DNA from: Octopus vulgaris
Lineage: Eukaryota
Reading direction: 5' to 3'
Length of the DNA stretch: 64,000 bases
Assembly (NCBI GenBank): GCA_951406725.2
Contig: OX597826.1
Span: 44,516,001 to 44,580,000 of the forward strand
The notes below the pieces were generated by a model that saw nothing but the letters and a program-made list of their open reading frames with translations, ran no database searches and had not been told where the DNA came from. Made by a program: the position numbers and the translations under genes. This document shows positions 52,129 to 57,380 of this stretch, one piece after another; position 1 is the stretch's first letter, and each line of letters begins with the position of its first letter.

Positions 52129-52374
52129 TGTGTATATATATGTATATATAGATATAAATAGACAGATAGATGTGTGTGTCTGTGTGCGTCCACACACATA
52201 CGCTCACACATACACACAAACACATCTATGCATGTACGCATATGGGTTCCAATTCTAAGGAATTGAAAATATAGGGAGTGTATGAGAGGGAAAAAGACAC
52301 ATAACATTGGTAAGCCAATATTAACAAACTGACATACAATTTAAAAGTAGGGGTAAAAATTTAATGTATTTATT

Positions 52375-52720
<346 letters not shown>

Positions 52721-53033
52721 GTTGGATTGTTGAAGTGGACGGACGTCTATTTGTTTCTCTCCCAAGTCAGTAGCAAGCTACACAGCTTCAAAACCTAACT
52801 GACCTTAAATATATATATATTTGTAACCACGTGTTTGCCTACAAACCCGTAAGTACGTTTTCATTTAACTACAAATTGTTATATACACCTGTTTTTCTTT
52901 TAATATCCTCAAACAACCAAATAATCAAAAACTCACACCCTTAATATATATATATATACACTTCTTTAACTCCCAAGAAAGAATATATATATTTTCAAAA
53001 ATCAAAAGGAAAACAAACAAAAGAAAAACAAAC

Positions 53034-54263
53034 ATGACTAACTTGCAGGCCTGCAACAGACGAAATTGGTCTGATAACGAAATTGATGTTTTAATAAACA
53101 CATGGTTCTCTCTTTCCCAAACAGAAAATCTAAATGTTTTGTGTTTGAATGAGATTGCCGAAAAAACATCACAAGTGGTCAACACACGATCCGTCAAACA
53201 GATTCGTAGCAAACTGAAACATATCGAAGTATCTTTCAAACTGACAAAAGGCCATTATGAAAAGCTTCTTCATATTTTCACAGTTCAAGAACAGCAACAG
53301 CTAGAAAATCAGCAGCCACAACAACAACAACAACAGAATGAGCCACTCCTGGTTCCCAGCACAATGGCTGACCCTAACATCGGTCAAGCACAACAACAAC
53401 AACAACAGCCACAGCAACAAGAACAACAACAGCCACTCCTCAACTCTAGCTTACTAGATGATTCACTAAATGCCAGTATCTTTGCACCGCTCTCACGGCA
53501 ACCACCACAATTATCATCATCATCATCACCACCGCTGCCACCATCGTCTTCTATCACCAAAAATACCAACAGAAAACCAAATAAGAAACCACTGCCCACT
53601 TCCCCCACATCACCACCTCAATACTACTGCAGTAACAAAAACTTAAAGAAGCATAGGATGCAGAATGCGCCCCCCACGGCACAAACAAGAAATCCCCAAA
53701 TATGCCGCTATTCACTGCGCCAGAGACTCTGCACAAATAGTGACTGCATCTTCACGCATCTACCCGGCACTAGATGCACTACCGGCCAAGGCCAAAGCAC
53801 GCATCCCACAATAACATCAACACCACCAAATAGTAAATCGAAATTCAAAACACACACAACTCGGAGTCTCAAAATCTGCCGGTATTCCCAACGTGAGAGA
53901 ACATGTCTGCTGAGTGACTGTCCCTTCACTCATCTTCCAGGGACCCGACGCACAAACAGAAACGGGGCTTCAAGCCAACACACAAACCTGAATAAAAATA
54001 AAAATAGAAACACACCATGCTGCAGTAATGCTGGTCCAGTCTTTTCAGGAAGACACAAAAACAACAACAACAAAAGTGGAAACTACAACCCTATCCAACA
54101 GTGCAACCACACCTCCAGCCAAAAACTGCTCCCTAAGCAGGAAAATTCTTTTTTAGCCATGTTGAACATGGCAAAAGAGATACACAAAAACATTGTAGCC
54201 ATCACTCAACACCATCCTATGCTATTACCCCAGTGCACCAATTCCCCACATTGCTGCCACTAA
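53034..54263 (+). CDS. LINE ORF1 protein (409 aa): N-terminal Myb/SANT (trihelix)-like domain, polyQ/Pro-Ser linker, two CCCH-type zinc fingers
   Basis: ATG-initiated ORF. NWSDNEIDVLINTW...IAEK...RSVKQIRSKLKHI resembles Myb/SANT-like helices. Two C-x8-C-x4-C-x3-H motifs are each followed by LPGTR (53703-53774, 53877-53948). Confidence 0.85.
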   Translation: MTNLQACNRRNWSDNEIDVLINTWFSLSQTENLNVLCLNEIAEKTSQVVNTRSVKQIRSKLKHIEVSFKLTKGHYEKLLHIFTVQEQQQLENQQPQQQQQQNEPLLVPSTMADPNIGQAQQQQQQPQQQEQQQPLLNSSLLDDSLNASIFAPLSRQPPQLSSSSSPPLPPSSSITKNTNRKPNKKPLPTSPTSPPQYYCSNKNLKKHRMQNAPPTAQTRNPQICRYSLRQRLCTNSDCIFTHLPGTRCTTGQGQSTHPTITSTPPNSKSKFKTHTTRSLKICRYSQRERTCLLSDCPFTHLPGTRRTNRNGASSQHTNLNKNKNRNTPCCSNAGPVFSGRHKNNNNKSGNYNPIQQCNHTSSQKLLPKQENSFLAMLNMAKEIHKNIVAITQHHPMLLPQCTNSPHCCH

Positions 54264-57200
54264 CACACACAAAAAAATCCAAGCCCCCTGCAACAGTCAA
54301 AACCAGCCGCTACACTAACCTCCACATTCCTACTCAATGCACAAGGTGTCAGCCCTTCCATCAATGCACAAAAATGGAAGGTCCAATTCATTGAAGACTG
54401 GGTTGGTAACCATTCACACCACATCCCTTTCTTCATTCTCACTGAGACCCACCTTGACAACTCCCACTTGGAAGCCGAAGTGAGAGTGAAGAATTTCACA
54501 ACCATCCGCGCGGATCGTATCGGCAGGAGGAAGGGTGGAACTGCCATTTTCCTGCATGATTCATTTACGGCAGATGGAAATAGTATATTCTCCAACGGCT
54601 ACTGTGAATCAGTCACCGTGCACAACAAAGCCAATGACCTGACAGTAATTGGGCTCTATAGGCCGCCCCAAACACCCATACTGTGCTTTAAAGAATGCCT
54701 CAACAGCATTAAGTGCTTTATTCAACAGTGCCATTCTAGCAACATACTCATGATGGGAGACTTCAATCTACCCTGTGTTGAGTGGACTACAAACTGTTTG
54801 AAACCAAGCACTCCCGCCTCAACCGCTGACAAAGAAGCAGCAGAGTCACTTTTCGACTTTACGAATGAGTTTTTCTTGTCCCAACTTGTCCTTGCACCAA
54901 CAAGACATCAGAACATTTTGGACCTAGTGTTTAGTAACCACACTAACACTATACATAACGTTACAGTGGAAAAAACCCTTCTTTCAGACCATGACATGGT
55001 TCTCTGTAACATGAAATTCCACCAGCCGAAAGCTAATCCTAGTGACCTTCCTCCAGCCCACCCATTTGACAACATGGATCTCCATAATGCCAACTGGGAT
55101 GCAATCAGGAACGAGCTATCACATGTTGACTGGTCCTTTACACATACACACATCTCCACCAACCATAAAACATCTTGGCAGATCTTTGTAGACACCGTCA
55201 CAGACATATGTGCAAAACACTCCCCACCAAGACCTGTGAACAAAAAGTGCAGAATCCCCCAAAACAGAAAAACCATTATCAGAAAAATAAAAAGAACAAA
55301 CAAAAAAATTAACAAACTAAAGTACTGCCAACAGCAACACACACATTCGACGGCTATCGCACTGCTTGAATCCAAAAAATATAACCTCCAACAATGCATG
55401 AAGACCCTCATCAATAACCAAAGATCAGCTGAGGAGAAGTGGGCCATTGAAAAAATCAAACTCAACCCCAAAGTGTTCTTTTCATTTGCGAGGAAACGCA
55501 GGGTCACTGTCTCCACTGTAGGCCCTCTAATTGACGAAACTGGCACTCTCCAAGATAATGCCAAATCCATGGCCGAGATACTGCAGAAACAATACTGCTC
55601 TGTTTTCAGCAATCCTGATATGGCCGATCTGGGCTGTATCAGTGATGTCAACCCCCAACACACTATATCGGACATAACGTTTAGTGCCCCTGATGTCTTA
55701 GCGGCGATAAACGAAATAAAACACAATTCAGCAGTAGGCCCCGATAGGTTCCCTGCTTGTGTCCTGAAGGTGTGTCGACACCAACTTGCATCTCCCCTTG
55801 CTAATCTGTGGAGAAACTCACTGGATGCTGGCTATATTCCAAAAAACCTTCTGTCCCAGTCTGTTGTCCCAGTTTTCAAAAAGGGAAACAAGTCCCTTGC
55901 AGTGAATTACCGTCCGATCTCACTCACCTCTCATATCATCAAGGTATTTGAGAGGGTGGTGAGATCTCGAATAACCCAATTTCTGGAAAGCAACAGACGG
56001 CTGATCTCCAACCAACATGGGTTCCGTAATGGAAGGGACTGCCTAACGCAGCTCCTGCATCACTTTGAGGACATTTTGAGAGCTTTGGGAGAGGGCTCCA
56101 ACACCGATGTCATCTACCTTGATTTCAGTAAGGCCTTCGACAGGGTCGATCACAAGATCCTATTGAAAAAACTATCCAACATTGGTGTCTCTGGAAAGTT
56201 ACTGAAATGGATCAAGTGTTTCCTGACAGACAGATCTCAACATGTTGTAGTTGAAGGGGTAAAATCAAGCCCAGCCAAAGTCAGTAGTGGCGTTCCGCAA
56301 GGCACTGTGCTGGGCCCACTTCTTTTCATCATTTACATTAATGACATTAATGACATCATCAAGCACAGCAACATAAAAATCTTTGCAGATGACTCCAAGC
56401 TACAGAAGGTCATAAATGAGGCGAGTGACCGGACATGCCTTCAGTCAGATCTACTGGCTGTTATCCAATGGGCAGAAAAAAACAATATGCTGCTGAACGA
56501 GGATAAATTTGAGCTAATCCACTTTGGAAAAGAGGATGCCCTGAAACTCCCATACTCCCTTCCTTCAGGTGAAATTCTCGCGGCGTCCAACAACATCAGA
56601 GACCTGGGAGTAATTGTGGACAACAACATAAGCTGGGCCACTCATATAAACACCAAAGTTGACATGGCCCGCAGAATGTGTTCCTGGATTCTCAGAACTT
56701 TCCAGTCGAGAGATATCTACACCATTATCCTTCTCTTCTCCACTTTTGCCCGACCCCACCTTGAATACTGTTGTCCACTGTGGTCTCCCCACACAATACA
56801 AGGTATCATAAAAGTTGAAGCACCTCAAAGGGCAATCACAAAAAAGATAGATGGCATGACAGGCCTCGACTATTGGGGTCGACTAGAAAAGCTAAAACTC
56901 TATTCTCTCCAACGTCGTCGTGAGCGCTACATCATCTGCATGATGTGGAAAATATTCCATCAGCATTGCCCAAATGATGTTGGCATCACCTTTAAGGTAC
57001 ATCCAAGGCTTGGGCCCCGTGCCATCCGCCCAAAACAAAAATCGCACTCTCATCTCATAATAACAATACGGCACAATTATTTCACCTCAATTGGCCCCGC
57101 TCTCTTTAACATTACACCAAAACACATTAAAACAGAAACTGACCCTATAGGGTTCAAGAAGTCTTTGGACAGATTCCTTCAAGAAATCCCGGATAAACCC

Positions 57201-57269
57201 CCTACACCCGGATATGTCTCTGTAAACAATAACTCTCTACTTGAGTGGGCCATAGTGCCCAAATTCTGA
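54264..57269 (+). CDS. LINE ORF2: apurinic-like endonuclease plus reverse transcriptase (open for 1001 codons after the ORF1 stop; no AUG before the first APE motifs)
   Basis: APE motifs LNAQG, LTETHL, YRPP, GDFNLP, LDLVF, SDH. RT motifs NYRPISLTS, QHGFR, YLDFSKAFD, GVPQGTVLGPLLF, FADD, DLGV. CR1-like C-terminus RPHLEYCCPLWSP...SLQRRR. The ORF track start (TTG at 54468) lies downstream of LNAQG and LTETHL. Confidence 0.93.
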   Translation, partial: HTQKNPSPLQQSKPAATLTSTFLLNAQGVSPSINAQKWKVQFIEDWVGNHSHHIPFFILTETHLDNSHLEAEVRVKNFTTIRADRIGRRKGGTAIFLHDSFTADGNSIFSNGYCESVTVHNKANDLTVIGLYRPPQTPILCFKECLNSIKCFIQQCHSSNILMMGDFNLPCVEWTTNCLKPSTPASTADKEAAESLFDFTNEFFLSQLVLAPTRHQNILDLVFSNHTNTIHNVTVEKTLLSDHDMVLCNMKFHQPKANPSDLPPAHPFDNMDLHNANWDAIRNELSHVDWSFTHTHISTNHKTSWQIFVDTVTDICAKHSPPRPVNKKCRIPQNRKTIIRKIKRTNKKINKLKYCQQQHTHSTAIALLESKKYNLQQCMKTLINNQRSAEEKWAIEKIKLNPKVFFSFARKRRVTVSTVGPLIDETGTLQDNAKSMAEILQKQYCSVFSNPDMADLGCISDVNPQHTISDITFSAPDVLAAINEIKHNSAVGPDRFPACVLKVCRHQLASPLANLWRNSLDAGYIPKNLLSQSVVPVFKKGNKSLAVNYRPISLTSHIIKVFERVVRSRITQFLESNRRLISNQHGFRNGRDCLTQLLHHFEDILRALGEGSNTDVIYLDFSKAFDRVDHKILLKKLSNIGVSGKLLKWIKCFLTDRSQHVVVEGVKSSPAKVSSGVPQGTVLGPLLFIIYINDINDIIKHSNIKIFADDSKLQKVINEASDRTCLQSDLLAVIQWAEKNNMLLNEDKFELIHFGKEDALKLPYSLPSGEILAASNNIRDLGVIVDNNISWATHINTKVDMARRMCSWILRTFQSRDIYTIILLFSTFARPHLEYCCPLWSPHTIQGIIKVEAPQRAITKKIDGMTGLDYWGRLEKLKLYSLQRRRERYIICMMWKIFHQHCPNDVGITFKVHPRLGPRAIRPKQKSHSHLIITIRHNYFTSIGPALFNITPKHIKTETDPIGFKKSLDRFLQEIPDKPPTPGYVSVNNNSLLEWAIVPKF

Positions 57270-57380
57270 CTTGAAAGACTTCACCAGGTGGTGCTATTAA
57301 GTTAGACATGGCCTGGGCCAATAATGGCCGAAACCTATCAAAGTATCAAAGTATATATATATATATATATATGTTTGTAT

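Follow-up and report, generated by a model that had tools for sequence, protein, structure and literature searches.

A slippery heptamer conserved across diverged lineages suggests -1 ribosomal frameshifting into the AUG-less ORF2 of a CR1-type LINE family from Octopus vulgaris

The way in which long interspersed nuclear elements (LINEs) translate their second open reading frame (ORF2) remains an open question, and work on it has dealt nearly only with human L1 and Bombyx SART1, where translation restarts and a free ORF2 protein is made. In SART1, ORF2 is reached by restart or coupling. We have examined a 64,000-nucleotide (nt) stretch of Octopus vulgaris DNA (assembly GCA_951406725.2, contig OX597826.1, positions 44,516,001 to 44,580,000 of the forward strand), which we refer to as the window and in whose coordinates all positions are given. 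It contains a full-length young copy of a LINE family that we call family A (52740-57353, plus strand, as are all features described below; other copies align from 52740 at about 99% identity, and the 5' limit is approximate). Comparison of this copy with its relatives points to a retrovirus-like way of reaching ORF2.

In retroviral gag-pol expression, as in HIV-1 with its U_UUU_UUA site (PMC5009743, in the part covered), a downstream ORF that lacks a start of its own overlaps the upstream one in the -1 frame, and family A has the same heptamer and the same arrangement. The likeness extends, by prediction here, to the exchange of the C-terminus of the structural protein for a trans-frame linker. 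Unlike gag-pol, this is an element without long terminal repeats (non-LTR) and without a protease, so that the fusion would probably stay uncut, and the folding described below revealed no strong stem-loop or pseudoknot that is conserved. Among APE-type LINEs, Dictyostelium TRE5-A and TRE3-A are stated in a figure legend of a review (PMC5911963, covered in part) to need a -1 frameshift for ORF2; the covered parts of two further Dictyostelium papers contain neither a shift site nor a test. Those elements are Amoebozoan and target tRNA genes, and their frameshift is known to us from the review's statement, whereas here a site is identified and is conserved over deep branches. Human L1 and Bombyx SART1 resemble the octopus element in having two ORFs, a low output of ORF2 and tolerance of a missing AUG (for L1, the covered parts of PMC5009743 and PMC1965478), and differ in making a free ORF2 protein from ORFs that are separated or in a stop-start arrangement, without a long -1 overlap or a slippery heptamer. 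Recoding has also been proposed for a non-LTR element of Drosophila, HeT-A, but there the shift lies within gag and no reverse transcriptase (RT) is encoded (PMC5009743, PMC5443660, both in part). For groups 1-3 of the Paramecium LINEs recoding has likewise been proposed, but as a +1 shift or readthrough and from the layout only, according to the part covered of PMC5405496. HeT-A, TART and L1 are the sole non-LTR elements named in the covered part of a 2016 review of recoding (PMC5009743).

In architecture the element resembles LINEs of the CR1/L2 group (PMC4120745 and PMC10294476, covered in part), with which it shares APE and RT without RNase H, a tandem-repeat tail and, in relatives, a PHD-bearing ORF1. 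The word frameshift is absent from the main text of these two papers, and a wider literature search, with subscription journals, Repbase reports and supplements largely outside it, returned no report of -1 frameshifting for animal CR1-type LINEs. The ORF1 of family A, with SANT and CCCH motifs, could be assigned to no described type. An octopus LINE described by Petrosino is, in the portion of the source covered, a single-ORF RTE element and hence a different one.

We consider it likely that family A expresses its AUG-less ORF2 by -1 programmed ribosomal frameshifting at the heptamer T_TTT_TTA (54149-54155), with a predicted product of about 1,410 amino acids (aa) that joins ORF1 to the endonuclease and RT. 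The frame layout, the missing ATG, the conserved phased heptamer and the extra A of the window copy are direct observations, and we take them in turn. ORF1 (409 aa, 53034-54263) begins with the ATG at 53034 and ends with TAA at 54261-54263. The heptamer is in phase with the ORF1 codons TCT TTT TTA, and a TAA at 54134-54136, four codons upstream of it, opens the -1 frame, so that 127 nt (54137-54263) are open in the 0 and -1 frames alike. The first-pass annotation, made from the letters alone, had described ORF1 and ORF2 as sharing one frame across the TAA. This is true of the window copy, in which readthrough would give 1411 aa, and untrue of the family, because an A7 run at 54271-54277 is A6 elsewhere and the one-base insertion severs the -1 frame from ORF2 here. 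In a search of the element's own genome, 40 matches were scored, and the other 39 all measured 600 nt against the 601-nt query. The base missing from all 29 fetched copies is one A of this run; A7 occurs in only 5 of 356 matches with exact flanks genome-wide, and A6 was found in all four sequencing runs examined, from three organisms. These counts bear out the earlier suspicion of a one-base homopolymer error in the copy or the assembly.

In A6 copies ORF2 lies in the -1 frame, which is open from four codons before the heptamer into the APE domain; the overlap is thus present in the copies of family A and, owing to the extra A, lost from the window copy, whose own -1 product would end at the TGA at 54392. 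Alignment of copies and reads, which had been proposed as the deciding comparison, therefore gives A6 family-wide together with a conserved heptamer and favours -1 frameshifting. The absence of an in-frame ATG before the first APE motifs also stands. The first such motif, LLNAQG, places the catalytic Asn at 54336-54338, whereas the first ATG of the ORF2 frame is at 54750, in the sequence MMGDFN (the GDFN motif), downstream of residues that align with the ETH and IY motifs of the L1 endonuclease (E 0.013 for the alignment of that enzyme with ORF2). In copies L002-L030 the first ATG in this frame comes 200 codons past the heptamer. A protein begun at 54750 would miss most of the endonuclease active site. 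All the coordinates in the first-pass annotation were accurate, including those of the TGA at 54392-54394, a TTG at 54468-54470 and a hairpin considered below. An A7 subfamily was considered and rejected, as the other four A7 copies lack the private alleles of the window copy. A7 has arisen more than once, as a recurrent homopolymer slip or error to judge from the alleles, and in the window copy it may be a real mutation or an assembly error.

Since the copies of family A are about 99% identical, they provide no test of conservation among themselves, and the argument turns on more distant relatives. Motif and protein searches of the same genome identified families B, C, D and E, the older families G and H and the distant family F; the motif search matched family B 237 times (control 0) and family C 262 times. 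A metagenome scan yielded 16 related loci, in 7 of which the tblastn match stopped short of a readable APE start and which were left out of the counts; viral and prokaryotic contigs, which were also scanned, yielded no relatives. In a quick tree of the APE region, families A to E and the metagenome contigs L061 and L062 form one clade (SH-aLRT 97) that includes most of the database homologues. Their ORF2s are 70% identical between A and C, 57% between A and B, 60% between D and E and 42% between L061 and L062, and 29-36% for the remaining pairs of branches. Seven well-preserved lineages of the clade have a readable junction. Each of them carries ORF2 in the -1 frame, together with a phased heptamer where the same predicted ORF1 helix begins. 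T_TTT_TTA itself is found in families A, B and C and in L061 and L062: in 29 of 29 other copies of family A, 16 of 28 fetched copies of B (6 lack the downstream anchor) and 24 of 31 of C (4 lack the anchor). Family D has A_AAT_TTT, in 92 of 96 matches genome-wide and in 21 of 39 fetched copies (13 lack the anchor), and family E has T_TTT_TTG (7 of 11). Many of the misses are copies truncated upstream of the site and the rest are point or indel changes. The decayed families G and H retain the T run. Thus the heptamer changes type from lineage to lineage while keeping the X_XXY_YYZ form, the correct phase and its position inside the overlap. The weight of the evidence, as we read these sequences, lies in its persistence while ORF2 diverged to 30% identity. 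The first-pass suggestion of a gag-pol-like -1 fusion gains support from this layout and from a heptamer kept across lineages at 30-35% ORF2 identity. As a separate observation, N-terminal upstream extensions of the database proteins P0047 and P0060 contain FFR and FFK, as a T_TTT_TTA site read in the -1 frame would be expected to give.

More distant LINEs show -1 overlaps with other X_XXY_YYZ heptamers. In family F, ORF1 ends with G_GGA_AAC followed by TAA (of 70 matches, 40 are exact, 24 have an extra G and 6 are other variants). The metagenome loci add T_TTA_AAC in L064, A_AAA_AAC followed by TAA in L071, A_AAT_TTC in L073 and A_AAA_AAC in L076, the last of which is not in the tree. Altogether, a -1 overlap with a phased heptamer is present in 6 of the 9 metagenome loci that have a readable APE start. 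Three of the heptamer types of these distant LINEs rank among the shiftiest in the list given by PMC5009743, in the part covered. We lean, by a small measure, towards the broader view that gag-pol-style -1 frameshifting is an ancestral and widespread means of ORF2 expression in CR1-group LINEs, and that the active enzyme is an uncut fusion built into the ribonucleoprotein through its ORF1 part.

Two exceptional layouts were seen at these junctions. In L068 (2043-2050), and also in L066, ORF1 and ORF2 share a frame that is interrupted by a single TGA; CTG comes next, no ATG precedes the APE motif, and this junction is a candidate for leaky-stop readthrough. In the multi-copy form of family F with GGGGAAAC (24 of the 70 matches; L171, L173-L175, L183-L187, L189 and L190), the ORF1 tail is in frame with ORF2. 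The three copies that were read upstream (L173, L185 and L190) are chimeras, in which an RTE-type RT and a zinc-finger region are joined at a short microhomology to the ORF1 tail and ORF2 of family F. As its ORF2 frames are often short (about 364 aa), this form is probably non-autonomous. With a chimeric origin, an upstream stop and an often short ORF2, it was not used as an example of a natural in-frame fusion.

In the scheme that we propose, the majority of ribosomes would complete ORF1 including its conserved C-terminal helix, and a minority would slip back one base at the heptamer by tandem tRNA slippage. The slipped ribosomes would trade this helix for a linker rich in Thr, Ser and Pro and continue into ORF2, giving a predicted fusion of about 374 + 1037 residues. 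Slippage would fix a low ratio of ORF2 to ORF1, as it does for gag-pol. Because relatives exist in which PHD, APE and RT are present in a single protein (P0078 and P0094), such a fusion is a plausible product. The helix in question is amphipathic (F-L-x5-K-E-I/L), lies in ORF1 directly past the shift site (window 54150-54210) and is conserved in families A-E and G and in L061 and L062; it would be missing from the fusion protein.

How surprising are the heptamer and the open -1 frame? Phased heptamers occur at a background rate of 35 in 7548 codons (0.46% per codon). Given the ORF1 residues, the probability that synonymous codons would produce the heptamer is 0.026 for A, 0.10 for D, 0.025 for E, 0.092 for L061 and 0.007 for L062. 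Across the seven lineages the heptamer lies 1-21 codons downstream of the point where the -1 frame opens, and this frame stays open for 45-159 codons up to the catalytic Asn; under synonymous resampling the probability of meeting no stop is 0.012 for L061 and 0.029 for L062. The copy of family D that was used is truncated into (TA)n, so that its upstream stop density is unusable. No ATG precedes the catalytic Asn in A, D or L062, and in family D the ORF1 stop falls within the first APE motif itself.

Several points weigh against frameshifting and temper our confidence. The per-lineage chances are not independent, since the lineages probably owe the site to a single ancestor, and the first heptamer was picked by eye. 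The open -1 frame is ordinary in A, D and E taken alone (P of 0.21, 0.12 and 0.47). Four lineages (B, C, E and L061) do have an in-frame ATG ahead of the Asn, which in C and E precedes the ORF1 stop by 7-10 nt. By the usual rule the last base of the heptamer is not G, and the heptamer of family E ends in G. Only 9 of 20 copies of the old family G have an exact heptamer, as would be expected of decayed copies. Of the 9 readable metagenome loci, L068 has the same-frame stop and L072 and L074 are without a clear layout. No shared 3' stimulator was found: RNAalifold gives no consensus structure (pseudoknots were not searched for systematically), B and C fold weakly (z of about +0.6 to -0.8, with one C copy at -2.4), and a long stem-loop in L061, at a 6-nt spacer, has a z of 0.1. 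Finally, the Phe-Leu encoded at the heptamer is also conserved in the ORF1 protein. This protein conservation does not explain the heptamer, because in family D, which has Asn-Phe-Val there, the heptamer has moved by one codon and changed type while Leu became Val.

The 7-bp hairpin GCCATGT-TGA-ACATGGC (54156-54172), which the first-pass annotation had noted directly after the heptamer, is real in family A and specific to it. Across A, C, G and H, 57% of cells are paired and two of the pairs are broken in 15 of 16 and 13 of 16 rows, and the abutting hairpin was rejected on this basis as a conserved stimulator. An uncertain candidate is a weak 3' stem at 54163-54204, in which TGA-3 nt-TGGC would pair with GCCA-TCA after a 7-nt spacer. 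In this stem 85% of cells are paired, although it was chosen by eye from the same sequences that were used to score it, and there is one compensatory pair, at two synonymous positions of ORF1; the z is -2.9 in copy L004 and -2.3 in the window copy. L062 has an 8-bp hairpin at a 6-nt spacer (z -2.2). The stimulator is probably weak, and other than the abutting hairpin. A low-efficiency shift would suit the low need of LINEs for ORF2.

Of the other explanations, termination-reinitiation survives best, although we judge it unlikely as the main route. After ORF1, ribosomes would restart at an AUG (in B, C, E and L061) or at a near-cognate codon near the stop, and a free ORF2 protein would result as in L1 and SART1. 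The codons near the stop give this idea some appeal. Family C has an ATG that precedes the ORF1 stop by 7 nt, and the corresponding codon of A is CTG, part of a TTG CTG pair (54251-54256, -1 frame) that is a candidate restart site; in E an ATG precedes the stop by 10 nt and has GTG as its counterpart in D. In addition, sense codons are tolerated in place of the AUG of L1 ORF2 (PMC1965478 and PMC5009743, in part). Thus C and E have an ATG near the stop and A and D a near-cognate codon, but none is near in B and L061, whose ATG is far from the stop, and L062 has no ATG at all. The candidate starts are at varying offsets (-4, -14, -20, -26, -32, -52 or none). Moreover, restart leaves unexplained why a phased heptamer is conserved 32-144 codons upstream of the stop and why the -1 frame of L061 and L062 is open for so long. 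Restart could operate alongside frameshifting.

A link between ORF1 and ORF2 by splicing, or through a deleted transcript, is very improbable in our estimate. On this explanation TTTTTTAG would serve in splicing, as a 3' acceptor, and not as a shift site. In A, C, G, L061 and L062 it does have the look of an acceptor, but B, H, D and E keep the heptamer without the AG. One contig of run X6, whose RNA origin is a guess, passes from about 53810 straight to 54158 and enters ORF2 in frame; this join has no GT donor and is one base off the AG. Two upstream GTRAG donors would give the wrong frame for ORF2, and run X1 covers 53900-54700 unspliced, with no GT-AG joint among the junctions listed. In the X6 contig (depth 14, compared with 11-18 for the collinear form) 347 nt are skipped and ORF1 codon 259 is fused in frame to ORF2. 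The junction motif has no match in the element's own genome (G000), and a deleted copy is the most likely source of the join. Slippage during transcription of the U6 run, by which a base added to some transcripts would yield the same fusion as ribosomal frameshifting, seems to us slightly less probable again: homopolymer runs here do vary in length among genomic copies, but A_AAT_TTT, G_GGA_AAC and T_TTA_AAC fill the same role without a long single-base run. Readthrough of the UAA to give the 1411-aa fusion, or a single ORF with a nonsense mutation, which the first-pass annotation had raised in part, fits the layout of the window copy only, and while same-frame stops occur in other LINEs (L068), for family A it is refuted by the copy counts and has a negligible chance, because 351 of 356 copies are not A7 and the frame past the TAA in A6 copies is not ORF2.

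If -1 frameshifting is the mechanism, a broad invertebrate clade would have a second, retrovirus-like solution to the expression of LINE ORF2, one that is testable with a short cassette, and the active enzyme would be a fusion of about 1,410 aa. There is also a consequence for annotation. By a rough motif count, 34 of 60 homologous proteins have a called start that coincides with or follows the first catalytic Asn. ATG-based annotation would then cut these ORF2s short, and families that are intact and mobile, with hundreds of copies, could be scored as dead.

The remaining features of the element may be described briefly. ORF1 has a Myb/SANT-like N-terminus (PF13837, E 1.8e-5, which is below that profile's cut-off), a linker rich in Gln and Pro, two CCCH-type fingers (PF14608, E 0.07) and a C-terminal predicted amphipathic helix; the second finger and the helix were read directly off the sequence. 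The ORF2 frame of the window copy (54264-57269) encodes an APE endonuclease and an RT (PF03372, PF14529 and PF00078, the last with E 1.7e-30), with the RT at about 55884-56612 in a Pfam scan that detected no RNase H, a trait of the CR1/L2 group (Jockey superfamily). LINEs of this group end in short tandem repeats, not poly(A). The 3' tail of the window copy (57336-57353) matches this trait, consisting of short tandem repeats (TATCAAAG twice) without poly(A), and the arrays are longer in other copies. The label CR1-type expresses a resemblance in architecture, as the tree holds unnamed relatives and no named CR1/L2 references.

In its own genome (G000, 2.8 Gb) the element has 916 candidate places. 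(TA)n microsatellites flank the window copy on both sides (52357-52720 and 57352-57372), and most of the fetched loci of families A-E also lie inside (TA)n, which suggests that TA repeats are an insertion target of these families. Compared with the main young subfamily, the window copy has about 35-40 shared differing positions in 52740-56100, and by these it seems to represent a branch of family A that is separate or older.

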